Of a stretch of 64,000 bases of DNA, positions 1,882-58,549 are shown in pieces; position 1 is the first letter of the stretch; every line of letters begins with the position of its first letter. The stretch is taken from assembly GCA_018362935.1 (NCBI GenBank), contig JAHALQ010000005.1:62490-126489 (forward strand), read 5' to 3'. The notes under the pieces are model-generated. The model had not been told where the DNA came from. It was given only the letters and a program-made list of their open reading frames with translations, and searched no databases. Both the position numbers and the translations under genes were made by a program. Source of the DNA: Pseudomonadota bacterium (lineage in GTDB: Bacteria; Pseudomonadota; Alphaproteobacteria; RF32; CAG-239).

Positions 1882-3342
1882 TTACCCGATTTTGGAATCT
1901 TTGGTAAGCTGTTCGCCGGTCTGGGCATAAGCGTCAACCGCGCGCGCCGCTTTCTTGGACAGGGCGATACAGCCCGGACCGGAAACACAGCCGCCTTCGC
2001 AGCACATAACTTCCAGCATATTGTTCTCACCGCCTTTGGCCGCATAGCGCTTAAGCAGTTTGATGTTCTCCTTGGTCAGGCCGTCAACCTTTTCGGGACG
2101 GATGTCAATGCTGTCGCCGACCAGACTCGCCACCGCTCCGGCCACGCCGCCGGTAACCGGAAACTGGCGTCCCTGGGCATGCGAAAGCTTACCGAACGGA
2201 ACTTCTTCGCATTCGTCAACATTAATACCGGAAGCAACCAGCATCGCGCCAAGTTCTTCGAAAGTCAGGACATAATCAACGTTCGGATCCCACTCCGCCT
2301 CGGCGCGTTTGGCCAGACACGGGCCGACAAACACGGCAACGCATTCGGGACATTCCTGTTTAACCAGCTCCGCCGTATAATACATCGGCGTTTTGGTGTC
2401 CGAAACAAACGGGCGGATTTCCGGAATATGCACCTGTGCCGCACGGAAATAGGCCGGACAGCAGGAAGTTGTCATAAAAGGCTGACCATGCTCCATTCTC
2501 TCGACAAACTCGGCGGCTTCTTTCTGCGTGGTAATATCGGCGCCGACGGCAACTTCAATCACATCGGCAAAACCGAATTTTTTCAAAGCGCCGGCCAGAT
2601 TATTGAGCGAACCGGGAAATTGCCCGGCAATCGCCGGCGCCAGCATGGCCACGACTTTTTTGCCGGTTTCTTTAATCTCGCGCATAACGTCAATCATTTG
2701 CGAACGCTCGACAATGGCGCCGAACGGGCACGATGCCAGACATTTGCCGCAGGAAATACATTTTTCGGTATCAATATGTTCTTTGCCGAATTCGTCCTTG
2801 GTTATCGCGCCGACCGGACAGGCCTCTTCGCACGGAACCGGAATTTTAACGACGGAATGATACGGGCAGACCTCAAAACACTTGCCGCAGTTGACGCATT
2901 TGTCCGGATCAATATGGGCGCGCCCTTTGACAATCGAGATGGCTTCTTTCGGGCAGTTCAGGCGGCAGGGCTGCGCAAAACAGCCGCGGCAGACATCGGT
3001 AATCACATACTGCGATTTCACACAGGCCGAACAGGCAATATCAATGACCGACAGTTTGTTTTTCGGCGCCTCTTTGCGTTCAAGCGCCTGTTCGCCGTAT
3101 TCTTTGAGACTGGTCAGCTCGTCCTGCTCTTCTTCCGGACAATGCCCCAGACCGGCCATACAGCGGTACTTGAGCACCGCGCGGTCTTTATAAATACAGC
3201 AGCGGCTGGGCTGCATTTCTTTGGGGCGCAGTTCCAGCGGGATTCTGTCCGCATTGGCAAATTTATCATGCAAATAGCTTTCGGCCAGTTTAATCAAAAT
3301 TTTGGTACGCATTAAGTTCGCGTTATTCTTAGGTATCAGCAT
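1882..3342 (-). CDS. hydA: [FeFe] hydrogenase, catalytic-type H-cluster domain with two N-terminal 4Fe-4S ferredoxin motifs
   Basis: Ferredoxin motifs CVNCGKCFEVCP and CISCGKCLASCP; H-cluster motifs L1 FMTTSCCPAYF (proton-relay Cys retained), L2 VGPCLAKRAE, L3 EVMCCEGGCVSGPGC; last gene of the Fd-hydS-PP2C-Fd-hydA operon. Confidence 0.85.
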   Translation of the reverse strand: MLIPKNNANLMRTKILIKLAESYLHDKFANADRIPLELRPKEMQPSRCCIYKDRAVLKYRCMAGLGHCPEEEQDELTSLKEYGEQALERKEAPKNKLSVIDIACSACVKSQYVITDVCRGCFAQPCRLNCPKEAISIVKGRAHIDPDKCVNCGKCFEVCPYHSVVKIPVPCEEACPVGAITKDEFGKEHIDTEKCISCGKCLASCPFGAIVERSQMIDVMREIKETGKKVVAMLAPAIAGQFPGSLNNLAGALKKFGFADVIEVAVGADITTQKEAAEFVERMEHGQPFMTTSCCPAYFRAAQVHIPEIRPFVSDTKTPMYYTAELVKQECPECVAVFVGPCLAKRAEAEWDPNVDYVLTFEELGAMLVASGINVDECEEVPFGKLSHAQGRQFPVTGGVAGAVASLVGDSIDIRPEKVDGLTKENIKLLKRYAAKGGENNMLEVMCCEGGCVSGPGCIALSKKAARAVDAYAQTGEQLTKDSKIG

Positions 3343-3658: not shown

Positions 3659-4834
3659 CTATATGTATTTGACACTAATTTCTTTCAGGTATTTGTCCTG
3701 CAAAATCCTGAATATCTTTTTCACAATATTGCGTCGGATTTCAAGCTCCATCGGCAAATTGGGATCCTGGTGGGCGATGTTGATTTTGGTACCGACCACA
3801 AAATCAATCTTGTCGCTGTCCAACAGCAGTTTGGCCAGCCGGGTCGCCCCGTTGTTTTTATCGGCATCAATGCCTTCTTTTAGCATACGGTACACATCAG
3901 TCAAGGTTAAAATTCCTTCCGTGACCAAATCAATGCCTTCCATTGTTGAACACATCGGGATTTTTTCGTCAAAAGACGTCTTGTCAATCTCGCATTTCAG
4001 ACAAAGTTCACGCTCGATAATATTGGCCGTTGTGCCGCCGCAGATTGCCGTCTTGCCGTCATAAGCAGAAACCAATTCGGCAAATTCGGCGTCGCGTTTT
4101 TCGTCAAACGGAGGGCCGGTCAAAACCAGCAGCTTGCGCGGCTTACGGAAATACAGCACGGTGCAGCTGATATCGTCGCCGGCTTTCTTGTCAACTTCTT
4201 TGCTTAAGGCTTCCTGCACAATCGCATGCGCCAAATCGCTGGCAGAAATTGTCGGGTTCCTGCGGATTTTCTCCAGCACGAAGTCCAGACAACCCTGCCG
4301 CTGCCAGCCCAGCGGATAAAGCCGGTTGCCCAGCCCGGCCTGCGTCACCCCGTCCGACATCAGAATAATCCGGTCTTCTTCCTGATTCGTCAGCTGCGAT
4401 ATATTAATTGTCCGGTCTTTCCACTTTTCGGAATATATCTCGCGGTAACGTACATTGACGGCCTTGTCGTCGCGGATAAACATAAAAGGCGGGTTGTCCA
4501 TCTCGAATATGCGCGTTTTGCCGTCGAGCTGTGTATCCACAACCGAAAAAGTCGCATAGCTGATTTTACGAATCTGACAGACCGGCAGCGCGTCCATCAT
4601 AACTTCCGACGAATGCATCAGTTCCATATTGCTTTCGACAAACTTCATTGCCATCCGCGTTGTCATCGATGACAGGATATTGGCTTTGACGCCGCTGCCC
4701 AGCCCATCGGACAGTATGGAAATAATCCGGCGCTCTTCGGGGATCTTTTTGGAATACACCGTGTCGCCGAAACAATCTTCGCCGTGTTTCTGCTGCTGCG
4801 CCGAACCGATTTCGATAAATAAAGAGTCGCTCAT
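3659..4834 (-). CDS. PP2C-family (SpoIIE/RsbU-like) serine phosphatase with a ~175-aa C-terminal domain of unknown function
   Basis: N-terminal PP2C motifs (GEDCFGD ... ILMSDGV ... GDDISCTVLYF); the C-terminal part (CGGTTANIIERELCLKCE...MCSTMEGIDLV) matches no domain I recognise; 3 nt downstream of hydS. Confidence 0.7.
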   Translation of the reverse strand: MSDSLFIEIGSAQQQKHGEDCFGDTVYSKKIPEERRIISILSDGLGSGVKANILSSMTTRMAMKFVESNMELMHSSEVMMDALPVCQIRKISYATFSVVDTQLDGKTRIFEMDNPPFMFIRDDKAVNVRYREIYSEKWKDRTINISQLTNQEEDRIILMSDGVTQAGLGNRLYPLGWQRQGCLDFVLEKIRRNPTISASDLAHAIVQEALSKEVDKKAGDDISCTVLYFRKPRKLLVLTGPPFDEKRDAEFAELVSAYDGKTAICGGTTANIIERELCLKCEIDKTSFDEKIPMCSTMEGIDLVTEGILTLTDVYRMLKEGIDADKNNGATRLAKLLLDSDKIDFVVGTKINIAHQDPNLPMELEIRRNIVKKIFRILQDKYLKEISVKYI

Positions 4835-4837
4835 CGG

Positions 4838-6619
4838 CTAAAACTTCCTCTCGGTCGAATTGGTACGGATTTTAACCCCCTCGTTCTCGCGATCGTTCAC
4901 GGCATAGTCTTTGGCGATAGAACGCAAAAGCACTTCCGTTTCAGCCATGTGCTCGCCCAGAGTGCATGCAATCTGCTGAACAGTCGCCAGATTCTTATGG
5001 ATAACTTCCTTTGCCCTTTCGGCAATCTGCTCTTTGTGCATCTCGGCGTTGGTCACATCTTCGATAATGCCGCCGACGCTTTGTTTCTTATCGATATTAA
5101 AGACCACCACGTCAAACATCTTGTCTTCGTGGCGGACATGCTCTTTGTGAATATCCTGTTCCAAATCCAGCGACGCCGTAAACAGATTGGTAAAGCTGAC
5201 AAAATCGCGCAGATTGGCACCGTACAGATTGTTGTAGTCATAAATTTCGGCATGTTCTTCCTCGTTCCAGAACGTATCGCGGAACTGGTCGTTGTATTCC
5301 ATGATATTGAGCTTGGCATCGGCAATTACAATCGGCGACGGAATGCAGCGGATAAGCGCGTTGGCTTTGCGCTGCGCCTGATGTTTCATGTGCGAAACGC
5401 ACATTTCGGGCTCGGCCTTTCCTTCCAGCAACGCGCAGGCAAAATTGCGGCAGGTGTTATAACCGCAGCCGCCGCAGTTCAACTCGTCCTCAATGCTGTA
5501 TTTGCCGATTCTCGTCAGTACTTTGCGAATGTCGCTTTCCTCAAATTTGCGGTCCAAGCCGTTAATATCCTGCGACTTATAACTTTCGGCTATATTGTAC
5601 TGCGGTTTGCGTGAAGCGGCTTCGTCAAACGACGCGTTTTTGAGGATTTCCATTCTCTTTTGCAGGCCGGAAGCCTTGTTGCTGGTACAGGGGCCGGACA
5701 CGCAGCCGCCGTAACAGGCCAGGCATTCCAGAAAAGTCGGCCGGTTCAGGTTGTCGATGTCAATATGCGTCAGCTCGTCCTGCAAACTGTATATGCCGGT
5801 AATCTGCGCCATATAAACGTCTTTTGACAGATTATGCGGTTTGATGGTTTCAATCATACCGCCCTCAATCGGATAAGCGCTGCCTTCTTTAGCATTATCC
5901 AGGGCAAAAACGTCAAAGACGCCGGGCACCAATTCTTCCGGATTAATGTTTTCATCTTTCAGCCACTGGCGCAAATCCTCAAAACTCAGAGCCAAAGACA
6001 ACAGCTCCGGATGCCTGTCGGCTTCAAACTTTTTGGCAATGCACGGGCCGATAAAAACGGTTTCAACATTCTGTCCGAACTTTTCTTTAAGCATCCGGCA
6101 GTGAGCCAGCAGCGGCGAAGCCACCTGCGCCAGATACGGCGTCAGTTCCGGCAGATATTTCTCAACATATTCAACCACCGCCGGGCAGGCTGTGGAAATC
6201 ATCAGCCGGTTTTCGTTTCTGGCAACGGCATCTTTGAGCTGGCGGACGGTTTCGGCAGTCACTTCCTGCGCGCCGAGCGCCGTTTCGCTCACGCCTTTAA
6301 TCCCCAGCCGGCGTATTGCCGCTACAATCTGCTCCTTGGTATATTCGGGAAATTCCGTCACCCATGACGGCGCCAGCGACACATAAATCTCGCGATTGGA
6401 AGAAACCAGATATTTGGCGCGCGCCAAATCATTGCGCGGCTGCTTGGCGCTGGCCGGGCAGACTTCGTAGCAAATGCCGCAGGCGATGCACAGCTCCGGC
6501 ACAATCATCGCCGAATTGTCCTCAATCTTAATTGCCTTGACCGGGCAGCGGCGGACGCATTTATAGCAGTCCTGGCAATCGTTCTTAACGGTATGCAGCG
6601 GGAAGTCGCGATTAGACAT
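4838..6619 (-). CDS. hydS: putative sensory [FeFe] hydrogenase HydS (H-cluster domain + Cx2Cx4Cx16C + PAS)
   Basis: N-terminal 2x4Fe-4S motif (CYKCVRRCP, CIACGICYEVCP); L1 ISTACPAVV with Ala in place of the proton-relay Cys; L2 GPCIAKKFE; L3 ECLACYGGCVSGPC; then CGGCGYNTC-x16-C and a PAS-like domain; start overlaps the upstream ferredoxin stop (TAATG). Confidence 0.85.
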   Translation of the reverse strand: MSNRDFPLHTVKNDCQDCYKCVRRCPVKAIKIEDNSAMIVPELCIACGICYEVCPASAKQPRNDLARAKYLVSSNREIYVSLAPSWVTEFPEYTKEQIVAAIRRLGIKGVSETALGAQEVTAETVRQLKDAVARNENRLMISTACPAVVEYVEKYLPELTPYLAQVASPLLAHCRMLKEKFGQNVETVFIGPCIAKKFEADRHPELLSLALSFEDLRQWLKDENINPEELVPGVFDVFALDNAKEGSAYPIEGGMIETIKPHNLSKDVYMAQITGIYSLQDELTHIDIDNLNRPTFLECLACYGGCVSGPCTSNKASGLQKRMEILKNASFDEAASRKPQYNIAESYKSQDINGLDRKFEESDIRKVLTRIGKYSIEDELNCGGCGYNTCRNFACALLEGKAEPEMCVSHMKHQAQRKANALIRCIPSPIVIADAKLNIMEYNDQFRDTFWNEEEHAEIYDYNNLYGANLRDFVSFTNLFTASLDLEQDIHKEHVRHEDKMFDVVVFNIDKKQSVGGIIEDVTNAEMHKEQIAERAKEVIHKNLATVQQIACTLGEHMAETEVLLRSIAKDYAVNDRENEGVKIRTNSTERKF

Positions 6620-28383: not shown

Positions 28384-30741
28384 CTATTTTTTAGTAAAGG
28401 GATTTTCAACTTTTGACGTGCTGTCAACGGCAAAAGCCTTTTCTTCCAGCCACCATTCGTCCGACGCCGGTTTTGTTCCGCGTCCCCGTTTTTCATTATC
28501 ACCGTGCCATTTGTCAGAAATGTCGCTGGCCATAACGCTGTTAATGTCGGTTTCTTCCGGCATTTTGCTTTTCGCATCGTCATAAGCGGTATTCATAAAT
28601 TGTTTCAGTTCGGTTTCATCTTCAATGCCCAAATCCATGTCATTGAGGACTTCGTCGACCGTCGGAGTCCCCGCATCCTGAATATTGCGGCGGCTGATAA
28701 TCTGCGCATCCAAACCGTAACAAGCTTCTTTTATTGCCTTTTCCTTAAATTTTTCGTCTTTGATATAATGGATATTGCGCGCCAAAATCGGGCGGTTATA
28801 ATACCCTTCTGCCAAAACGACCTGATAATCTCTGGTTTTAATGCGCAAATTGCGTTTTGTTTCAAAATCTTTGGCCAGACGATAAAAATAATTGGCGTCG
28901 GCAAAACCTCTTTTATAACGCAGCGACCGCCGGTTATCCAACGAAATCTGCACCGACTTGGTTGCAAAAAGTGCCAGTTTTTTCAGTTGGCGGCTCATTT
29001 TTTTATTATCCTCCGCCAGAACGATTTTATAAGTGGAATTTGAAACGATTTCTTCAAGCGTTTCTTTGGTATAAGTATTTTCCACGCTGTTCAGGCTGTT
29101 GCACAACAGCAAAAAGGACGTGCGCATCGACGGCCCTTTGGCGACCGCTTCGGACAGGGTCCGCACTTTTAGCATCTGCCCGACATCATCAAGCACCACC
29201 AGAAGCGGAAACGCGCCTTTTGCCTGTCCCTCGATGATGCCCTGCTCCAAAATCAGTTCCATGAACATCCGGCTGACAAATTTGGCGCTTTTGGTGTTGG
29301 CGACCACATACACCGTCACCGGTTCCGGCCGGCCGGTTTCGTTGTTTTTGATACCGCGAAACTCCGACACGTCAAAATCGTTCATACCGGTTTTTTCGCG
29401 AATAACCTGGTTAATGAAACTTTTAAGCGGTTTAACCATACAGACAAAGACAATTTGCCGCTGCTGGCGGGACAAATACAAAAATTGTTCCAACCCGCGG
29501 ATAACATTATTGCCGTAATTAAACAAACCGGCTTCAACCACCAGGGTTTCAAGCCATTTTCGCCAATCGGCGCGATCCCCTTCGTCTTTAGAAGTCAGAT
29601 AATTCTGCAGCAGCCAGTCTGTCAGCATGCCCAGACACAAATCCTTCCCTTTCCATGAATCCGGAATACCGTCCCAGCTGCCGATCGGCACATAATCGTC
29701 CGGGCTGAATTCAGGCGAACGTTTCAGTTTTTCAATCGCTTTGTCCACACACGCACGCGGCATCAACAGATAATAGCTGAGCAAAACCTCACGCTCATCT
29801 TTCTTCAAAGAGTTTTTTTCCAGAATCTTATCCAGAAAATAATCATTGGCCATAGCCTGCGAAACTTTTGCCGTCAAAAATGCCAACATCGCGTTCATAA
29901 CATTTTCGCACAGCCAATACCAATAATTGCTGTCTTCATGCTCTTCGTCGGACAAAACCAGATAAGACGCGATTTTCTTAAGATAATCATCGCGTTTTTG
30001 TCCCTTTGGCGGCAGTCTGTCGATACTGAGCGGATTCCACTTAGGATAAAAAATCCCCTTGTCGGTATCATCGGCCAAATCCCAGTTAAAATAAAAAACC
30101 TTGCCGATTTCGGCACGGTGCCCGCTGGTATGGCGTGCCAAAGTACCGGCATTGTCAACCGCCAAAACGCTGACGTTGTCTGACCGCAAAATCGAAGGAA
30201 TGGCGACGGACGAGGTTTTTCCGCTGCCGGTTTCGCCGATGCAAAGTATATTTGAAGGGCGGCTGACACCCAGGACATAACTCTGAAAACGCCCCAGCAC
30301 CAGCAATATGCCTTTATGCAGACCCATTTTTTCAATATCGCCCAATTTAGCAAAATGAGTATTGAGAATATACCAGAAGTTAAAGGAATAAGAGCTTTTC
30401 ATAAAAGCAAAATAAAGCGCAAACAGCGACACCAGCGGCGCGCTCAGCGGCAGCAGCAGTATCCAGTTCAGGCTGTACGTCCGGAAACCGCGAACCAAAG
30501 CCTCCCACCAGCTTGCATAAACGGCAAAAATATGAAACGGGTTATCCCAAATGCCGAAATCGCCGTGCGTAAATAAATGCGCGTGCGCGCTGCCGTCCCG
30601 AAAAACAAACCAGTGCACCGAACCAAACAGGAAGACCGAAAAAAACATAAAGAACACAAACGTAAAAGCCAGCACTAAAATAATATTCAGGAGCGCTTTC
30701 TTTGGGCTGACTTCGTCTTCAAGTGTTAAATCTGTGGTCAT
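28384..30741 (-). CDS. type IV secretion/conjugation coupling protein (TraD/TrwB/DotL-like T4CP), 785 aa
   Basis: Two N-terminal transmembrane helices; Walker A GETGSGKTS with downstream LAVDNAG (the TrwB/TraD-type GKS/T P-loop rather than the VirD4 GKG form); Walker B-like LLVVLDDVGQM; long acidic C-terminal tail. Confidence 0.7.
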   Translation of the reverse strand: MTTDLTLEDEVSPKKALLNIILVLAFTFVFFMFFSVFLFGSVHWFVFRDGSAHAHLFTHGDFGIWDNPFHIFAVYASWWEALVRGFRTYSLNWILLLPLSAPLVSLFALYFAFMKSSYSFNFWYILNTHFAKLGDIEKMGLHKGILLVLGRFQSYVLGVSRPSNILCIGETGSGKTSSVAIPSILRSDNVSVLAVDNAGTLARHTSGHRAEIGKVFYFNWDLADDTDKGIFYPKWNPLSIDRLPPKGQKRDDYLKKIASYLVLSDEEHEDSNYWYWLCENVMNAMLAFLTAKVSQAMANDYFLDKILEKNSLKKDEREVLLSYYLLMPRACVDKAIEKLKRSPEFSPDDYVPIGSWDGIPDSWKGKDLCLGMLTDWLLQNYLTSKDEGDRADWRKWLETLVVEAGLFNYGNNVIRGLEQFLYLSRQQRQIVFVCMVKPLKSFINQVIREKTGMNDFDVSEFRGIKNNETGRPEPVTVYVVANTKSAKFVSRMFMELILEQGIIEGQAKGAFPLLVVLDDVGQMLKVRTLSEAVAKGPSMRTSFLLLCNSLNSVENTYTKETLEEIVSNSTYKIVLAEDNKKMSRQLKKLALFATKSVQISLDNRRSLRYKRGFADANYFYRLAKDFETKRNLRIKTRDYQVVLAEGYYNRPILARNIHYIKDEKFKEKAIKEACYGLDAQIISRRNIQDAGTPTVDEVLNDMDLGIEDETELKQFMNTAYDDAKSKMPEETDINSVMASDISDKWHGDNEKRGRGTKPASDEWWLEEKAFAVDSTSKVENPFTKK

Positions 30742-30746
30742 TGATG

Positions 30747-31886
30747 TTAGCGGCTGTCTCTTCCCCGGTTGATTATTCTCTCGTCAAACTCTTTTTTAAC
30801 CTCTTTTTTCGGTTCCTCTCTGACGACTTCTTTTTCCAGTTCCTGTTTCATTGCCACGCGCACTTCCAGCTCCCGGCGTTTGCGCTCTTCAATTATTCTG
30901 CGCAATTCCTCGTTATGCGACTTGGCTTTGTTTTCCTGTTCGGAACGGATATTTTTAAGGGCGTCTTCATCCTTGACCGGCGGTTTTTCGGCTCCGCGCC
31001 GAAATACCTTTTTGCCCAGTTTCATAAGGCTTTCTATACTGATACCCTTGTCATTGGCAAAATCCAAAACGCCGAATTCGCGCCCGTCCCCCAGAAAAAT
31101 ATCGCTGATATCGACACCGTTAAAACCTTTGGCTGCTTTCTTTTTGGGAGCCATTAGGCGTGCCAGTTCTTCCTTGTTGGGCACGCGCCCCAAAGCCTGG
31201 GCAATCTGCTGCGGCGTAATGATGCATTCGCTCAAATCAAGTTCCATAATATTGACGCCGGTAAAATCGCAGCCCGTAAAATCCACGCCGCGCAAACTCA
31301 CTTTGCTTAAATCTATCTTAGCCAGATTAAGCAGCGTCAGATTCATTTTTGCCAGATTAAGCTTATGCGGATAATATTTGGCCAAATACTCAATCAGCGC
31401 CTGTAATTCTTCTATGCCAAGCTCGTCAATCTCAATATCAAGCAGAATGGCGTTTTCCAAATCGGCATCCTGCAATTTGATACCGTTAAGTTTAGCACCC
31501 GTAAAATTAGTACCGTGCAAAACCGCGCCGGACAATACCGCTCCGCTTAGATCGGCGCCGGACAAATTGGCATCGGTCAGATTAGCGCCCGAAAAATCAA
31601 CCCCGCGCAAATCAGCGCCGGAGAAATCAACATTGGTCAGGTTTGCAACCGAAAAATTGGCGTTTTTAAAACTTTCGTTGGCAAATTTGCCGTCTTCCAG
31701 ATTTTTTCCGACAAAATCGATTGTGTTCAGAAATGTCCCGCGCCCGACATCATTTTCCGCAGCATTCGACACCGCCTGCCAGACCGATTTGTCGTCGCCG
31801 ATGGAATAAGAACTGCCGGCTGCCGCCCGGCTTTCCTGTATTTTGGAACGAATAGTGTCGATTTTACTGCTTTTGTCGTCTGCCAT
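30747..31886 (-). CDS. pentapeptide-repeat protein with a charged coiled-coil C-terminus
   Basis: Tandem A(D/N)LxG repeats (ANLTNVDFSGADLRGVDFSGANLTDANLSGADLSGAVLSGAVL...); the track ORF starts at TTG 31913, the ATG at 31886 has an AAGGACGG RBS; ends 5 nt before the T4CP start. Confidence 0.75.
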   Translation of the reverse strand: MADDKSSKIDTIRSKIQESRAAAGSSYSIGDDKSVWQAVSNAAENDVGRGTFLNTIDFVGKNLEDGKFANESFKNANFSVANLTNVDFSGADLRGVDFSGANLTDANLSGADLSGAVLSGAVLHGTNFTGAKLNGIKLQDADLENAILLDIEIDELGIEELQALIEYLAKYYPHKLNLAKMNLTLLNLAKIDLSKVSLRGVDFTGCDFTGVNIMELDLSECIITPQQIAQALGRVPNKEELARLMAPKKKAAKGFNGVDISDIFLGDGREFGVLDFANDKGISIESLMKLGKKVFRRGAEKPPVKDEDALKNIRSEQENKAKSHNEELRRIIEERKRRELEVRVAMKQELEKEVVREEPKKEVKKEFDERIINRGRDSR

Positions 31887-31968
31887 AAGCCAACCGTCCT
31901 TATATTCTTGCAACTTAACCTATATCATAAATTATCTTTTGCCATTTTACAAACAAATTATGACAAGC

Positions 31969-33729
31969 TTACTGCAACAGACATTCAAAACGGTTGCTGG
32001 TCAGCTGGCCGCATATTTCCGCCAGTTCGGCTGGCTGGCCGTAAATGCGCAGGCGATACCAGTTTCTGCCGTTGACAACAGCTTCTTCAATCTTGGGTTG
32101 GTGCTTTTTCAGCAATCCGAAACGCGAGCTGAGATTTTTCCAATCCGCCACAGCGCTGTTATAATTTTCATAAGAGCCGAGCTGCGCCAGCCGCGCGTTT
32201 TTCGAAGCCGGAGTCCGGGAGGAGCTTTGCGGACGGCGGTATTTATACCCTTCTTTGACAACCTCTTCCAGCCAGTTGTCGCCGCTGGCCCACCCGCTTT
32301 GTTCCATAACCGGCCGCGCTTTCATCTGCATTGTTACGGCCGACAGCATTTCCACAAGATGGCGGTTAAAAGCCTCGCGCAGCGAAACGGCTATATCGTT
32401 TGTTTTGCCGCGCAGCAGCGTTTTGCTGAACGGCGAAAGCCCGGCGTTAAAATAAAGGTTGCGCAGTGCCATTGCCCGCTCTGCTTTAATTTGCGCCGAC
32501 TTCTGCTCCAATATTATCAGGCTGATTTTGTCATTAAGAAGACTGATTTTTTCATCAACCGGCGCCCGGTATGCTTTTTCCTGCTTTTTCACGGCTTTGC
32601 GGACTTTGGCAATTTCCCGTTCGTTGGCGTCATAATCAGCGTCGGCCTGCTCCACGAGCCGGTAAGAAACTTCAACCTGCGTTAAAATGGCGGCGGCCAA
32701 ATCATCAAACACCGTCCGCTGGCTTGCGCGCCAGGCTTCGCTGCCCGGCTTGCTTTCCTGCAGTTGGCGGACATCATTCAACAGCTTGTCGGCAATGCTC
32801 ATCGCCTTGTCATACAAAGCCTGCTCATAAATATCGTTTTCAACTTTCAGGCCGTTGACATCCAAACGTCTGGTCAGCGGATAATCCCGCAAAACATTGT
32901 GCCGCACCTCGCCGACACCGTAATTTTTGACTTTGGCTTTGGCCAGCGCAAACTCGTTGCGGTTGCGCACAGCCGCTTCCTGAAAGATTTCAATGGTATA
33001 ATTCTTGTCAAAATCTTCCAGTTCGTAAAAACGCCTTCCCTCCAGCCGTATTTCCTTAGGCAGCACTTTGGTCAGCTGTTCATATTCGGCCATATTCATG
33101 GCAAACGACTGTTGGAATTCGCGGAGTTTCAACAACGCCACATCCAGATTTTTCTTATATTTTAAGTCTTCCGCACTGAGACTGCCGTTGCGGTTCATCT
33201 TATTTTTCAACTCATCGGACTTCTTTTGTTCGGTCCGCATCATCCGCGCGATTTCTTTCAGTTTGCGATCGGCAAACCAGGCGTCCTGATGTACCCGAAT
33301 TGCCGCCGAAGCCAAATGCTGGGCAGATTTGTTATAAAGGTAGTTGTCCATAAACTGCGAACTGTTTTCAAGATTGGCAACGGCGTAAATCGTGGCAAAT
33401 TCCAACACGCGCGACGCCGCAAACAACCTGCTTTGGTCGTTCACGTCAGAGCTTTTGATATTATTGATAATTTCCTGCGGCTTAAGATTGGGATTTTGGT
33501 TGTAAATTTTCTTGCTGAGGTTCTGAGTGGCCGCATCGGCATTATATTTGGCGGCCCGCGCCATTGTCGCGTATACGTCCAGTTTGCCCTTGACCGGTTC
33601 GGGATTCGAGGCAAAAACCAGCGTATCCGTTTTTATGTCATTGTTTTTGCTTCCGTTATCAACACTGCACGCTGCCAGCGCCATAAGAGCCAAAACCGCG
33701 CCAAATTTAAGCTTACCGGAATTTTTCAT
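31969..33729 (-). CDS. lipoprotein with TolC-like helical repeats and a C-terminal SPOR (peptidoglycan-binding) domain
   Basis: Lipobox LAAC|S; a TolC-like helical/coiled-coil region that I could not tie to one family; C-terminal NWYRLRIYGQPAELAEICGQL motif typical of SPOR domains. Confidence 0.5.
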   Translation of the reverse strand: MKNSGKLKFGAVLALMALAACSVDNGSKNNDIKTDTLVFASNPEPVKGKLDVYATMARAAKYNADAATQNLSKKIYNQNPNLKPQEIINNIKSSDVNDQSRLFAASRVLEFATIYAVANLENSSQFMDNYLYNKSAQHLASAAIRVHQDAWFADRKLKEIARMMRTEQKKSDELKNKMNRNGSLSAEDLKYKKNLDVALLKLREFQQSFAMNMAEYEQLTKVLPKEIRLEGRRFYELEDFDKNYTIEIFQEAAVRNRNEFALAKAKVKNYGVGEVRHNVLRDYPLTRRLDVNGLKVENDIYEQALYDKAMSIADKLLNDVRQLQESKPGSEAWRASQRTVFDDLAAAILTQVEVSYRLVEQADADYDANEREIAKVRKAVKKQEKAYRAPVDEKISLLNDKISLIILEQKSAQIKAERAMALRNLYFNAGLSPFSKTLLRGKTNDIAVSLREAFNRHLVEMLSAVTMQMKARPVMEQSGWASGDNWLEEVVKEGYKYRRPQSSSRTPASKNARLAQLGSYENYNSAVADWKNLSSRFGLLKKHQPKIEEAVVNGRNWYRLRIYGQPAELAEICGQLTSNRFECLLQ

Positions 33730-33842
33730 GCGTTTATTCCCATATGTAACAATATGTAACAAGAATTTAAAAGCTTTTTACCAAATTTCTTGTTATATGT
33801 AAACCAAAATTAAATCACGTGAACTATTTAGGGGTAAAACTT

Positions 33843-52581: not shown

Positions 52582-53052
52582 TTAACGCTTGCGCTGCGCT
52601 TTGTCGGCTTCAAGCGCGCGGTATAAATCCGGACGGATAAACCGCCCGCCCCAAATGCCTTTTTTCTCCCGGCGCGCTTCCTGTTCATCCCCGGCAAAAC
52701 CGGCATAATAATGCGTATACGCCACTGCCAGGCCGTCGCGCACTAATTGTTGATTGACATTGACTCTGCCGGCATAACATATGGAAACGTCGCGGCCGTA
52801 TATATCCGTCGTCTGCTTCCGGCAGTCAACGCCGTTTTTGACCATATCCGCCAGCGCTTCTTTGGCTTTCTGCCCGCATTCGTACAACCGCCCTTCGGCA
52901 TCATAGCAGCTTTGGTTGTATTCGGGCGCGTCGATTCCTTCCAGCCTCACCCGGCGGCCGTCAATCAGCAGGCTGTCGCCGTCGACGGCAGTTACTTCCG
53001 CCCGCGCGGCAAAACACCACAAACACCCCGCGATGAACAAAAATTTTTTCAT
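52582..53052 (-). CDS. secreted thermonuclease (staphylococcal nuclease homologue)
   Basis: Signal peptide; SNase motifs (VDGDS, RLxGIDAPE, GRxxA, GxW). Confidence 0.7.
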   Translation of the reverse strand: MKKFLFIAGCLWCFAARAEVTAVDGDSLLIDGRRVRLEGIDAPEYNQSCYDAEGRLYECGQKAKEALADMVKNGVDCRKQTTDIYGRDVSICYAGRVNVNQQLVRDGLAVAYTHYYAGFAGDEQEARREKKGIWGGRFIRPDLYRALEADKAQRKR

Positions 53053-54140: not shown

Positions 54141-54269
54141 GGTTTCTCCAAATATATATAATTTCTTTATTGTTCTTTTCAGAACAATATATCATGTTTT
54201 AAATTATAACAATCCGCAGATTGTTATAACTTTCATCCAAAATATTCTTTCTTAACCTAATTGCTTTAA

Positions 54270-54302
54270 CACCATATACAAACACCTCCTTTGCGGAGGT
54301 GT
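54270..54302 (-). terminator. intrinsic terminator downstream of the acidic-protein gene
   Basis: ACACCTCC-tttgc-GGAGGTGT hairpin; T-rich on the minus strand. Confidence 0.45.
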
Positions 54303-54307
54303 CTGCA

Positions 54308-55735
54308 TTATGCGCCGTAGCTGAAATAACGCACGCTCTGATAAATCAAAATTCGCTCAATGTTGCTGAAGCGGCATTGGTTCGCCCCGTAGCGTATAAC
54401 CCCGGAATCTGCGGGCAGCGCACCGTTTCTGATTTGATATTTGCGGACGTCATCCAGACTCATAACCGGGCCGCCGTCAAACTCGACCAGCCACCCGTAT
54501 GTATCATAACCGGCATTGACATGGATAATATTATTCTCTGCGCTGCCGTCAATCGCTGCGGGCAATTCGTTTTTGGAAATTTCAAACATTTCGTCATGCA
54601 CCGAGCCGCTGAACCATTTTACAAAGTTCGGCTCCGCGGCAAATAATCCTCCGGGCTTGGTTTCTTCGTCTGATAAACCGGACGCAGCCGCCGTTGCCAA
54701 AGCGCCGGGAGCAGAAACTCCGTCGTTTGCCGCTTCGTTATCGGCCATATAATCCGCACCGTTTATATCGGAATGCTCCTCCTCCGATGAACCGAGCCAT
54801 GCGCTGTCTTCCGCAATGCCGCCAGCCTCATCTTCGCTCTCAACCGATACGGGGGCGGCCGCTTCGGCATTTTCCTCAGCCGCCTCGTACAATTGCGGAT
54901 AGGCGGATAAACTTTCCTCGATATTCGTTTCGGCAGTATCACCTGTTGTCAGCCAGCTGTTTTCAGCGGCAGCTTCGTTTTCTGTCTCAAAACCGGTTAT
55001 TACTGAAGTTTCTGTTTCATCTGTCGGGTTTTCGTCCGCGACAACGGCCGATTCCGCCGGTTCGGCTTCCAACCCAACGGAAGTTTCCGTTTCCGCCAGC
55101 CAGCCGCCCCCATCGGCAGGAGCCGCCTCAGTTTCAGATTCCGGCGTTTCTTCAGCCGCCCAGCCGTTGCCCGCTGCCGGTGATGTTTCCTCAGCCGGCG
55201 CATTATCCGCAGTTAAATCTTCTGTACTGTTAAGCTCATCCGCATCAGTTTCAGAAATAGAAAAGTTCAAACTTTCCGTTCCGCCGTCTTCAACCTGGTC
55301 TGCCGGTATATCCGACATAAAACCGTCATCCCGCACCGGTTCGGGCGCCGCAGCATCCTCGGCGTTTTCCAGAGCAGCGCCATCCGAATTCAACGAATCA
55401 GCAAAACCGCCGGCATCTTCAAATTCCGGCACTCCCTCAGCGCCGCTCACACCAATGCCCGAAAAATCCGGATTGATGTCTGCCGGCGCGTCGTCATCCT
55501 GGCTTATTCCCGACAGCCAGCTTTCCATATCCAAATCGGCTTTGCTCTCTTCCTCTTCGGCAAGGTTTAGCGGCGTTTCGAACCCTGCCGCTCCCGGATT
55601 ATCCAACACTTCGTCCAGATTAAAATCCGTTTCCGCGTCCAAATTCAGATTCTGAGCCGGCTGCAGGTTTTCCGGATTTTCATCGGAAAGCGCAGTTACA
55701 GGCGTCATATCCAAATTTTCTGTTGCGTCATCCAT
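54308..55735 (-). CDS. extremely acidic low-complexity protein (~380 aa D/E/A/T/S-rich) with a ~95-aa C-terminal globular domain
   Basis: AAGGTGA RBS; starts 11 nt after the envZ-like stop; the C-terminal domain (FVKWFSGSVHDEMFEI...VRKYQIRNGALPADSGVIRYG...) matches no family I recognise. Confidence 0.5.
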   Translation of the reverse strand: MDDATENLDMTPVTALSDENPENLQPAQNLNLDAETDFNLDEVLDNPGAAGFETPLNLAEEEESKADLDMESWLSGISQDDDAPADINPDFSGIGVSGAEGVPEFEDAGGFADSLNSDGAALENAEDAAAPEPVRDDGFMSDIPADQVEDGGTESLNFSISETDADELNSTEDLTADNAPAEETSPAAGNGWAAEETPESETEAAPADGGGWLAETETSVGLEAEPAESAVVADENPTDETETSVITGFETENEAAAENSWLTTGDTAETNIEESLSAYPQLYEAAEENAEAAAPVSVESEDEAGGIAEDSAWLGSSEEEHSDINGADYMADNEAANDGVSAPGALATAAASGLSDEETKPGGLFAAEPNFVKWFSGSVHDEMFEISKNELPAAIDGSAENNIIHVNAGYDTYGWLVEFDGGPVMSLDDVRKYQIRNGALPADSGVIRYGANQCRFSNIERILIYQSVRYFSYGA

Positions 55736-55746
55736 ATTATATCACC

Positions 55747-57105
55747 TTATAACGGAATGCTGATTAACACTTTCAAGCCGCCCAATTCGCTGTCGCCCAG
55801 TTCTATTGTGCCCCCGTGCGACGTAATAATGTCTTTGGCGATAGACAATCCCAACCCGACGCCGCCGGTTTCCTTATTGCGCGAATTTTCAAGTCTGTAA
55901 AAGGCCTTAAAAACATCATCCCTTTTATCCTGGGGAATTCCCGGGCCGTCGTCTTCAATCATCAGGTTAAGTTTTTTATTGTTGCTCTCGAGCTTAACTC
56001 CAATTGTTTTTCCGTAGCGGAAAGCATTGGCTATAATGTTGGTCACCGCCCTTTTCAAAGCCTGTTCGCGCCCTTGGATAGCGCTGACCTGATCATTGGT
56101 CGAATAACGGATGAGCGCTTTCTTGTTGCGGAACTTGTTGATAATGCTCAAAATCATTTCATTCATATCGACAAAGCTGGATTTTTCGCCGCCCTCGCCG
56201 CTGACAAACGACAGATAGCCGTCAAGCATTTTCTCCATCTCGTCGATATCCGACAGAAAGTCTTTTTTGTCTTCATTATCAGGCAGCATGGTAACCTGCA
56301 GTTTCATCCGGGTCAGCGGCGTCCGCAAATCATGCGACACGCCGGCCAGCATTTGCGTGCGCTCGCTGATTTGGCGCTGAATCCGCTCTTTCATTTTAAT
56401 AAAGGCAATAGAAGCTTTACGAACTTCCGAAGACCCGGAAGGTTTAAAATCCTTGTTGTCAATGCCTTTGCCGAAATCTTCCGCAACTTCGGCCAGCCGG
56501 GCAATTGAACGCACCTGAATCCGCAGGAACAGCACCGCCACCAAAAACAGCAGAATAGAGGTTCCGGCCATCCAGACCACAAACATGAAAATCGAACTGC
56601 TGAAAATCTTTTTCCGCGAAGTCGTAAACTTGTACAATCCCGATTCCGTATCGACAAACACCAGCAGATCTTTGTCTTCCTTCCCCAGATAAATTGAGGT
56701 TGTATCCGGCCCGAAATTATTGTTGAGGGCTTCCTCAAGGTAACCGATAATCAGTTTGCTGCCTTTCCCGGCTTTGTTCATGACCTGATGCTTGTCCTGA
56801 TTGCTGTAATATTCCATATCCATATCAAAGGTTTCGGCCGACATTTTCTGTAAGGCCGCAATTTTGGAAGGCTCCTGCGTGCCGATATCAATAATAAACT
56901 TCATATCCGAAGCCAGATTTTCCGAAAGGCGCCGCCCCATCCGGCTCCAGCTCCCGTCAAAGAACATAACAACCGAAACAATCTGCACTACAATCAGCGG
57001 CACAAAAATTAACAGCATCGTCCTGAAAAACAATGTCCGCGGCAAAAATTTCAAACGCATATAGCGCAGCTTTTCTTCCCATTTAGGCGATAATCTGATA
57101 TGCAT
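55747..57105 (-). CDS. EnvZ-like sensor histidine kinase
   Basis: Two transmembrane segments, HAMP, H-box AGVSHDLRTPLTRMKLQ (EnvZ-type), and HATPase N/G boxes. Confidence 0.8.
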   Translation of the reverse strand: MHIRLSPKWEEKLRYMRLKFLPRTLFFRTMLLIFVPLIVVQIVSVVMFFDGSWSRMGRRLSENLASDMKFIIDIGTQEPSKIAALQKMSAETFDMDMEYYSNQDKHQVMNKAGKGSKLIIGYLEEALNNNFGPDTTSIYLGKEDKDLLVFVDTESGLYKFTTSRKKIFSSSIFMFVVWMAGTSILLFLVAVLFLRIQVRSIARLAEVAEDFGKGIDNKDFKPSGSSEVRKASIAFIKMKERIQRQISERTQMLAGVSHDLRTPLTRMKLQVTMLPDNEDKKDFLSDIDEMEKMLDGYLSFVSGEGGEKSSFVDMNEMILSIINKFRNKKALIRYSTNDQVSAIQGREQALKRAVTNIIANAFRYGKTIGVKLESNNKKLNLMIEDDGPGIPQDKRDDVFKAFYRLENSRNKETGGVGLGLSIAKDIITSHGGTIELGDSELGGLKVLISIPL

Positions 57106-57109
57106 GGTC

Positions 57110-57805
57110 TTATTCCTTCATAGATAACAACATATAACCTTTTCCGCGAACCGTCTGCAGGTAACGCGGATTTTTGGTATCAGGCTCAATTTTTTTCCTC
57201 AGACGCGTAATTTGCACGTCAATTGAACGCGGACTCTGGCCGGCGCCCAAAATTTCCGCCAGTTTCTCGCGGCTGAATACCTGCCCCGATTTGGCGCCCA
57301 AAACGTTGAGCAGTGCCTGCTCGACCGGCGTGATGTGAATAACCTCACCTTGTCTGGTGAGCAGCTCTTTGGTTTGCAGATTATAAGTACACAACCCCAG
57401 ATTCAGACATTCGTCGACTTCCGGTTTTTCGGCAGGCGCACGGCGCAAAATGCTTTTAATCCGCAATACCAGTTCCTTGGGTTCAAAAGGCTTGGGCAGA
57501 TAATCGTCGGCACCGCTCTCCAAACCGCAGATTCGGTCTTCGGTTTCGCCCATGGCTGTCAGCATGATGACCGGGATATTATTTTCCCGCCGCAGTTTTG
57601 CCAAAAATTCCAAACCGCTTTCTTCCGGCATCATAATGTCCATAATCAGCAAATCAAACTTATACTGTTCCATGAGGTGACGCGCATCCGCCGCCGACTT
57701 TGCCGTCGATGTATAAAAACCGCTCTCCCGCAAAAATCTTTGCAGGAGAGAACGCAGACGCGTGTCGTCGTCGACGACCAGAATATGTTTGATTTCACAA
57801 TCCAT
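57110..57805 (-). CDS. OmpR-family response regulator
   Basis: REC domain (VVDDD ... D in LLIMDIMMP ... KPF) plus a winged helix (RSIDVQITRLRKKIE...YLQTVRGKGY). Confidence 0.85.
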   Translation of the reverse strand: MDCEIKHILVVDDDTRLRSLLQRFLRESGFYTSTAKSAADARHLMEQYKFDLLIMDIMMPEESGLEFLAKLRRENNIPVIMLTAMGETEDRICGLESGADDYLPKPFEPKELVLRIKSILRRAPAEKPEVDECLNLGLCTYNLQTKELLTRQGEVIHITPVEQALLNVLGAKSGQVFSREKLAEILGAGQSPRSIDVQITRLRKKIEPDTKNPRYLQTVRGKGYMLLSMKE

Positions 57806-57835: not shown

Positions 57836-58549
57836 TTATTTTTCAGCTTTCTTTTTCGCCTTGGAAACTTTTGCTGTTTTGGCAGCGGCCGGCTTGGCCT
57901 TTTTGCTTTTGGCAGCAGGTTTGGAAACCGGTTTCACCTTTTTCTTTACCGGTGCCGCAGCGGCCGCAGCTTTTTCAGCCTTATTCATCTTGCGAATGTA
58001 ATTCAGGCTTTTTTGAAAATACTGGTAACCGGTAATAAAAGTCAGCACAGCGGCAATCCATAACAGAATCTCGCCGATACCGCCCCAATACCACACGCCT
58101 TTCAGAAGCAGCATCGACAGTGCCGTCATCTGGAAACCCGTCTTCCATTTGGCCAGTCGCGTTACCGGCATGCCGACTTTGACTTCCATCAAAAACTCGC
58201 GCAGACCCGAAACCAGTATTTCGCGGCACAAAATAACCACAACCGGGATATAACTCAGCCGGGTAACCAGCATATCGGGCTTGGCCAGCAGAACCACCAG
58301 CGCCGAAGCCACCAGCAATTTATCGGCAATCGGGTCAAGCAGTCGTCCGAAAGCGGATGTTTCGCCGCGGGCGCGTGCCAGATAGCCGTCAAAATAATCG
58401 GTAATTGAGGCGGCAATAAACAAAATCGCGGCAAATATCGCCCAGACATTGGAAGTAATATAAACCGACAGGAAAATCAGCGGAATAACCACGATTCTCG
58501 AAATTGTCAAAATGTTAGGCAAACTATACACGTTTCTACCCCTTTTCAA
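57836..58549 (-). CDS. pgsA: CDP-diacylglycerol--glycerol-3-phosphate 3-phosphatidyltransferase with a Lys/Ala/Pro-rich C-terminal tail
   Basis: CDP-alcohol phosphotransferase motif DxxDGxxAR...GxxxDxxxD; last ~50 aa are AKPAAKSKKAKPAAAKTAKVSKAKKKAEK. Confidence 0.85.
   Translation of the reverse strand: MKRGRNVYSLPNILTISRIVVIPLIFLSVYITSNVWAIFAAILFIAASITDYFDGYLARARGETSAFGRLLDPIADKLLVASALVVLLAKPDMLVTRLSYIPVVVILCREILVSGLREFLMEVKVGMPVTRLAKWKTGFQMTALSMLLLKGVWYWGGIGEILLWIAAVLTFITGYQYFQKSLNYIRKMNKAEKAAAAAAPVKKKVKPVSKPAAKSKKAKPAAAKTAKVSKAKKKAEK

Follow-up and report, generated by a model that had tools for sequence, protein, structure and literature searches.

Several described proteins set a highly acidic region beside an interaction motif or a folded module. 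PopZ, a protein of ~180 residues, begins with a short motif for interactions, continues as an acidic disordered linker and ends in a helical oligomerisation domain (DUF2497), and HubP/FimV is organised around a LysM domain, a transmembrane (TM) helix and a FimV C-terminal domain. In RNA polymerase, the delta subunit (RpoE of Firmicutes) has an acidic tail, and prothymosin-alpha pairs with histone H1. Here, we analyse an extremely acidic 475-residue protein encoded on the minus strand of a 64,000-nucleotide (nt) stretch of DNA, referred to as the window (assembly GCA_018362935.1, contig JAHALQ010000005.1, positions 62,490–126,489), from an alphaproteobacterium of the RF32/CAG-239 lineage. The protein has a conserved C-terminal domain (C-domain) at the end of a long acidic arm, and its gene follows that of an EnvZ-like sensor histidine kinase. 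It founds a family for which no relative was found in the libraries searched, and the kinase gene precedes the acidic gene in every locus that has upstream sequence. Window coordinates are collected in Table 1.

An acidic protein family from uncultured gut Alphaproteobacteria

Profiles from Pfam, NCBIfam, PADLOC and PHROGs assigned neither the whole protein nor its C-domain to a family (the only PHROGs match had E = 0.08), and Pfam had no match for eight divergent family members. A word-indexed protein search returned short family fragments only; an exhaustive hidden Markov model search of 1.84 billion representative proteins was needed to reveal the family, which comprises 233 clusters (50% identity) at E <= 0.001 and 217 at E <= 1e-10. 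Its members are 114–913 residues long, the domain is C-terminal in all 150 matches listed, and ‘hypothetical protein’ is the sole name attached to them. A genome scan located the family in 26 species-level loci, all in metagenome-assembled genomes labelled uncultured Alphaproteobacteria or proteobacterium, with one uncultured Azospirillaceae and one record named ‘Proteobacteria bacterium CAG:495’; wherever a record title names a source, it is the gut of an animal or a human (roe deer rectum, sheep colon, Hadza). A metagenome scan, queried with a narrower family alignment, added 29 loci, many of them from human gut. By these searches, the acidic protein founds an undescribed family whose located members all come from uncultured, mostly gut-derived Alphaproteobacteria. 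This host lineage is common, yet almost nothing functional is known of it, and nothing relevant was found in the literature on RF32/CAG-239.

The window gene is a genuine coding gene: it has orthologs in more than 60 loci, in which the C-domain is conserved, and the substitution-rate ratios given below agree with coding. About 20 of the 64 contigs terminate within the acidic gene (L004, L015, L040–L053, L059, L061 and L064), so that the gene is apparently hard to assemble. It is frameshifted in L001/L002, and automatic gene calls often break it up: P0001 was called as a protein of only 107 residues.

Long family members (600–913 residues; L060 4021–6288, P0088, P0100, P0124 and P0130 are examples) bear repeats of the EYEYVE(V/L)P type, in several copies close to the N-terminus, as well as a conserved middle domain of ~175 residues that has no Pfam match; the window protein has neither. 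A duplication of the C-domain was considered as the origin of the middle domain and found to be unsupported (hhalign probability 2.8%).

Linkage to an EnvZ/OmpR-like two-component pair

The acidic gene is the last in a one-strand string of uvrC, pgsA, response regulator, kinase and acidic gene, with gaps of 33, 30, 4 and 11 nt. The best NCBIfam models for the kinase and the regulator are EnvZ (241.9 bits, cut-off 415) and OmpR (221.7 bits, cut-off 331); both scores lie under the equivalog cut-offs, and ‘EnvZ/OmpR-like’ is therefore the correct wording. An earlier note, made from the sequence of this stretch, had described a gene that starts 11 nt past the sensor-kinase stop behind a good ribosome-binding site, is probably co-transcribed with the pair and ends at its own terminator. 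The start is exact on the minus strand: the kinase stop codon occupies 55747–55749, and the 11 nt between it and the acidic ATG read GGTGATATAAT. The ribosome-binding site is equally clear, and its overlap with the kinase stop codon, together with the 11-nt gap, is the arrangement expected for translational coupling. Co-transcription with the kinase is indicated in the window by the 11-nt gap and by a kinase/acidic junction devoid of hairpins, the only hairpins lying 3′ of the acidic gene, but it does not extend to all relatives. As for the terminator, two strong hairpins follow the stop codon, and the 123-nt region 3′ of the gene has a folding energy of −40.4 kcal/mol, where shuffled versions average −18.8 (z = −7.7); a simple consensus terminator scan did not flag hairpin 1 because its tail reads UUUGUAUAU.

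The order pgsA, regulator, kinase, acidic gene is present in all 24 genome-scan loci that have upstream sequence. Downstream, a convergent orphan lipoprotein-like gene of ~280–310 residues usually comes first, followed by a staphylococcal nuclease (SNase) homolog and the genes for L21, L27, Obg and RsfS. Since synteny extends over this entire neighbourhood, adjacency by itself says little about a functional tie, and it is the rearranged loci that are informative. Upstream in L029/L030, unrelated genes, including those for AAA_14/DUF4143 and DUF559 proteins, stand in place of the regulator and pgsA, and the kinase–acidic pair is intact. The lipoprotein and SNase genes of L033 have together been relocated to the far side of uvrC, with a kinase-to-acidic gap of 9 nt, and in L034 an integrase and an ATP synthase operon lie downstream of the acidic gene. 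L060/L062 represent a lineage of higher G+C content (0.56–0.59), with a kinase that is only 40% identical; here, a single gene for phosphoenolpyruvate carboxykinase (PEPCK) has been inserted, and the acidic gene comes next (755 residues, net charge −143). Overall, of the 64 loci, all of the ~45 that have upstream sequence carry the EnvZ-like kinase gene upstream of the acidic gene and in the same orientation, at a distance of 9–20 nt in ~30 loci and of 135–218 nt in a clade of long-form members. Of the synteny in relatives, a check proposed in the earlier note, the linkage between kinase and acidic gene persists through rearrangements.

The inserted PEPCK gene of L060 (2052–3890, same strand as the kinase; GTP type by inspection of the sequence) is also found in L062. 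In Brucella, pckA adjoins bvrR/bvrS, the orthologs of ChvI/ChvG (PMC9491525). The PEPCK neighbour may hint at which alphaproteobacterial two-component system is involved, orthology to ChvG/ChvI being a lead only, given the apparent GTP type of the enzyme and the orientation of its gene.

A constrained C-terminal domain on a fast-evolving acidic arm

The folded character ascribed earlier to the last ~95 residues is borne out by AlphaFold2, which, from a 15-sequence alignment, predicts eight strands and one helix with a per-residue confidence (pLDDT) of ~82–96 for model residues ~30–110 (protein residues ~385–465); a run with two sequences gave an identical topology at lower confidence. Sequence searches of the PDB with the single sequence and with a 37-sequence profile returned chance-level matches only (LolD, E 0.07; galectin-10, E 0.2), and Foldseek comparison of the C-domain model with the PDB and BFVD gave nothing at E <= 0.001. 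The profile and structural examination of the C-terminal ~100 residues thus describes a domain predicted to be folded, with no relative in Pfam, NCBIfam, the PDB or BFVD. Across the libraries searched (profile sets, PDB and BFVD) it is a candidate new domain family, and, going by the PDB and BFVD comparison of the model, likely a novel fold.

Two sets of comparisons reveal how differently the two parts of the protein evolve. The C-domain is 50–86% identical to the domains of relatives, with 0–2 gaps, and has 14 invariant alignment columns. The arm is 27–44% identical to relatives’ arms, with 67–157 gap columns, and retains its charge; in these comparisons with the window protein, the domain is 53–86% identical. 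Relative to the protein that is 90% identical in the arm, the ratio of non-synonymous to synonymous substitution rates (dN/dS) is 0.40 for the arm, 0.09 for the C-domain, which has no indels, and 0.02 for the kinase; in the arm of this same pair, five losses of acidic residues are offset by five acidic gains. Fast sequence change with kept charge indicates that the arm is maintained for charge while its sequence drifts. No tandem DNA repeats were found in the acidic gene, so the arm did not arise by recent expansion of a repeat. The picture is the opposite of a housekeeping fold with a poorly conserved or absent acidic region, the finding named in advance as fatal to a special role: the charge is kept and the domain has no match in the libraries searched.

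The acidic protein is the most anionic among the window open reading frames (ORFs) scanned. Residues 1–380 contain 98 D/E and 4 K/R (net −94), the last 95 residues have a net charge of −5, and the whole protein carries −99, that is about −100, and not the charge ‘well below −100’ that had been estimated. The description of ~380 residues of D/E/A/T/S-rich low complexity holds, as A, E, D, S, G, T, P and N make up 78% of residues 1–380. Ahead of the domain, the 166 full-length members have a stretch of 102–808 residues with, on average, 28.5% D+E, 4.2% K+R and a net charge per residue of −0.24. Composition, charge per residue and indel-rich fast evolution together suggest that the arm is probably an intrinsically disordered polyanion. 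None of the 166 members has a signal-like N-terminus, the N-termini being acidic, or a TM-like segment (maximum Kyte–Doolittle 19-residue mean 1.8; 0.65 in the window protein). The envelope location entertained at first is therefore not borne out, and the protein is probably cytoplasmic.

Despite its fast evolution, the arm keeps an N-proximal DFN[FL]DD[LV]L motif. A regular expression for this hydrophobic-acidic motif matched the first 90 residues of 79 of the 166 members; shuffled sequences gave an expectation of 7.3 and never more than 15, so that the enrichment is ~11-fold. GGWLAE/NSWLxx-like motifs ([G/S]-W-L-[A/S/T]) occur in one to six copies, only in the closest relatives (L003–L006); the window protein has five. 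The edges of the C-domain are among its most conserved elements, with KWFSG (KWYSG in the family) at its N-edge and YFSYG at its tail. The monomer model places neither with confidence: pLDDT is <50 for model residues 1–23 and averages 55 over the last ten-residue block. Such a combination is often seen where a segment becomes ordered on binding a partner or on oligomerisation, and it may have that meaning here.

A possible third component of the two-component system

One mark of a three-component system is conserved linkage to, and co-transcription with, a kinase and a regulator, and the acidic gene has this arrangement. We propose, tentatively and with somewhat less than even confidence, that the acidic protein serves the EnvZ/OmpR-like two-component system in the cytoplasm, as its third component or as a scaffold. 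A partner of this system was among the roles suggested at the outset; the strict kinase linkage agrees with it, and the partnership itself we infer. The constrained C-domain, its conserved unplaced flanks and the enriched N-proximal motif suggest a specific binding role. In the proposed mechanism, the C-domain, with the KWYSG and YFSYG flanks, would dock on the kinase or self-associate at the inner membrane face, and the acidic arm would engage basic partners electrostatically, tethering them or serving as a decoy. The DNA-binding domain of the regulator is one candidate for such a partner; another is a Lys-rich tail, probably cytoplasmic, on PgsA, whose gene lies two genes upstream. By binding either of them, the arm could adjust signalling or link it with the synthesis of anionic phospholipids.

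The PgsA tail is the most cationic segment among the window ORFs scanned; the next reaches +13 (L21 and four unannotated ORFs). Of 34 related loci, 33 encode a comparable tail, of 37–76 residues and a net charge between +12 and +21. All of the 120 closest relatives of PgsA are longer than the 182–183 positions of the PgsA family profiles, at 217–370 residues (all but one <=252). PgsA has six TM helices and carries out catalysis at the membrane–cytosol interface (PMC8640168), a topology by which the Lys-rich tail should be cytoplasmic. Nothing relevant was found in the literature on Lys-rich PgsA tails. The tail is a candidate electrostatic partner of the acidic protein, though the idea is weak. 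A more specific version, which we consider improbable, has the polyanion (about −100) pairing with the PgsA tail (about +15) and/or the regulator’s DNA-binding domain, so that the kinase would sense or control anionic-lipid homeostasis; such pairing would produce a charge-driven complex or condensate at the inner membrane, with the C-domain as a docking domain of novel fold. A polyanion of about −100 and a polycationic tail of about +15 on a membrane enzyme, encoded in one operon, make an unusually clean natural system in which to study bacterial polyelectrolyte interactions, and both genes are small.

Several observations weigh against the proposed role. The genes uvrC, pgsA, SNase, L21, L27, Obg and RsfS are also largely syntenic in the lineage, so that part of the kinase linkage may be inherited gene order and not function. 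The 135–218-nt gaps of the long-form clade and the intervening PEPCK gene of L060/L062 imply that co-transcription is not universal. The EnvZ-type accessories known to us (MzrA, CpxP, ExoR and FeuN) are small periplasmic or membrane proteins and not cytoplasmic polyanions, and a literature search for acidic disordered proteins that partner such kinases found nothing relevant. For PgsA in particular, tail charge and acidic-protein charge are modestly correlated (Spearman 0.41, p = 0.017, uncorrected for phylogeny), and L034 retains the acidic protein though its PgsA has no tail; with this exception and the weak correlation, the pairing with PgsA can be put forward only as a hypothesis.

Alternative explanations

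Four other explanations were ranked behind the proposed role: first a general polyanion, then an organiser of the PopZ kind, next secretion by a type I system and last a PilZ protein. The first holds that the protein is a general cytoplasmic polyanion unrelated to the kinase, acting as a counter-ion or a buffer for cations (K+, Mg2+, polyamine), a nucleic-acid mimic or a chaperone of basic proteins and tails, much as the acidic tail of the RNA polymerase delta subunit does or prothymosin-alpha with histone H1, and that its C-domain merely anchors it to some abundant machine. Much in the arm agrees with this: charge is conserved and sequence is not, length varies from 102 to 808 residues across the 166 members, and acidic losses and gains balance in the comparison with a close relative. 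Moreover, uvrC and pgsA lie in the same string and are unrelated in function, so membership of the operon need not mean a shared function. Bulk charge, however, leaves unexplained the N-proximal motif, the highly constrained C-domain and a kinase linkage that persists through rearrangements on either side, and we regard this explanation as unlikely.

A PopZ-like self-assembling organiser, a hub or condensate at the pole or the membrane in which the C-domain oligomerises, the arm acts as a spacer and the N-proximal motif recruits clients, would make the kinase one client at most. The layout is the attraction of this idea, which the earlier note had also raised: a motif at residues 37–44, an acidic arm and a conserved C-domain with unplaced flanks mirror PopZ, and the host is alphaproteobacterial. 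Against it, the sequence has no match to PopZ (DUF2497/PF10691), and the C-domain is predicted to be beta-rich, with its eight strands and one helix, and not helical. The analogy of layout survives, and an actual PopZ-like organiser appears distinctly improbable.

Export without an N-terminal signal, for example of a secreted or surface polyanion with the C-terminal signal of a type I substrate, is very unlikely. The protein does not have the tandem GGxGxDxUx beta-roll nonapeptides that define RTX proteins, and no type I ATP-binding cassette transporter, membrane-fusion protein or TolC was found among the 30 larger annotated window ORFs or the called genes of related loci. Motif checks of the acidic protein for PilZ, RTX and EF-hand-like elements were all negative.

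A PilZ-type cyclic di-GMP receptor domain on an acidic tail, suggested in the earlier note by a loose RxxxxR...DSG signature (R431-x4-R436 and D443-S444-G445 are indeed present) and favoured also by an EAL-like gene elsewhere in the window, is effectively refuted: the signature is neither a PilZ motif nor conserved in the family, RxxxR is absent from the whole protein, the sole [DN]xSxxG falls within the acidic arm (residue 90), the family alignment varies at D443 and S444 (S is commonest at both, with 26% and 29%; D443 <14%), and there is no PF07238 profile match and no structural match. Accordingly, the acidic protein is not a member of the PilZ, PopZ or RTX families, a defining feature being absent in each case.

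Other genes of the window

The orphan lipoprotein-like gene that converges on the acidic gene encodes 296 residues with a lipoprotein-type signal (…LCLAGC) and has no match in Pfam, NCBIfam, PADLOC or PHROGs. It is 50–86% identical to its counterparts and adjoins the SNase gene in most related loci, moving with it in L033. The SNase homolog itself is conserved between the orphan lipoprotein gene and rplU. Elsewhere in the window, two [FeFe]-hydrogenase large-subunit-like genes surround a SpoIIE/PP2C-type phosphatase gene. The hydrogenase-like genes point to an anaerobic, fermentative lifestyle, which would be unusual for Alphaproteobacteria and would fit a gut origin. A VirD4/TraG-like type IV coupling protein, a pentapeptide-repeat protein and an ORF without a Pfam match are encoded in succession and may be what is left of a conjugative element, or else a module for effector delivery. 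The weak EAL-like region lies in a 426-residue protein and scores below threshold (26.9 bits against a cut-off of 31.3).

Table 1. Features of the window discussed in the text, in window coordinates
Feature	Position	Strand	Remarks
Acidic-protein gene, 475 residues	54308..55735	minus	ORF list and translation; stop TAA 54308–54310; ATG 55733–55735
Acidic arm, residues 1–370	54626..55735	minus	Polyanionic, probably disordered; 26.5% D/E, 0.8% K/R, net charge per residue −0.26
N-proximal motif DFNLDEVL, residues 37–44	55604..55627	minus	Family consensus roughly (I/V)(N/D)LD(D/E)FNFDDL
[G/S]-W-[L/A] motif 1 of 5, MESWLSG	55508..55528	minus	
[G/S]-W-[L/A] motifs 2–5	55151–55171, 55091–55111, 54944–54964, 54788–54808	minus	
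C-terminal domain, residues 371–475	54311..54625	minus	Conserved; predicted as five strands, one helix, three strands
KWFSG, residues 373–377	54605..54619	minus	W 86%, Y/F 96%, G 95%
YFSYG, residues 470–474	54314..54328	minus	Near-invariant; Y470 99%, F471 93%, Y473 99%
Shine–Dalgarno sequence AAGGTGA	55742..55748	minus	Overlaps the kinase stop codon
Hairpin 1	54273..54312	minus	Directly 3′ of the stop; 13-bp core stem, then UUUGUAUAU
Hairpin 2	54201..54232	minus	Perfect palindrome between two convergent genes
EnvZ-like sensor histidine kinase	55747..57105	minus	Two TM segments, HAMP, HisKA, HATPase_c; Pfam/NCBIfam
OmpR-family response regulator	57110..57805	minus	4 nt upstream of the kinase; Pfam/NCBIfam
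PgsA C-terminal tail, 52 residues	57839..57994	minus	Lys/Ala/Pro-rich, net +15; pgsA = 57836–58549
Orphan lipoprotein-like gene, 296 residues	53193–54083	plus	Convergent
Staphylococcal-nuclease homolog	52582–53052	minus	Signal-like N-terminus
[FeFe]-hydrogenase-like genes around phosphatase gene	1882–3342, 3659–4834, 4838–6619	minus	
Type IV coupling protein, pentapeptide-repeat protein, ORF	28384–33762	minus	785, 388 and 597 residues
Protein with weak EAL-like region, 426 residues	7067–8347	plus	
ORF, 419 residues	8349–9608	plus	No Pfam match; follows the EAL-like gene

Comparison with known systems

The likeness to PilZ (PF07238) goes no further than a small, predicted beta-rich domain and the loose R...R and DSG of the window sequence; the motifs of the acidic protein are not of the PilZ type. 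HubP/FimV shows that a bacterial organiser protein can have highly acidic, repeat-rich regions of variable length, but its LysM domain, TM helix and FimV C-terminal domain are all absent from the acidic protein. The delta subunit of RNA polymerase and prothymosin-alpha also join a folded or docking module to a long polyanionic disordered tail, which serves as a nucleic-acid mimic or meets a polycationic partner. In the delta subunit, the order of domains is the opposite and the tail much shorter than here; the acidic protein comes from another taxon, has no HARE-HTH domain, and no link to RNA polymerase was seen.

The closest functional parallels may be the accessory components of two-component systems and the PopZ-type scaffolds, and by analogy the acidic protein may work like either. 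MzrA, CpxP, ExoR and FeuN, accessories of EnvZ/CpxA/ChvG-type systems, are likewise extra proteins that act on a two-component system of the OmpR family or share its locus; they are small and folded, whereas the acidic protein is unrelated to them in sequence, has no export signal, carries a charge of about −100 and is probably disordered over most of its length. PopZ is alphaproteobacterial and cytoplasmic, is built from an N-terminal motif, an acidic linker and a C-terminal domain, and organises signalling proteins, including histidine kinases. It differs from the acidic protein, which has a C-domain predicted to be beta-rich and without a Pfam match, an arm of 100–800 residues, and a gene fixed downstream of that of an EnvZ-like kinase. 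If this linkage is functional, no earlier accessory of an OmpR/EnvZ-class two-component system would be, like the acidic protein, cytoplasmic, polyanionic and disordered, and the protein would extend the scaffold-plus-kinase theme of Caulobacter to a different protein family.

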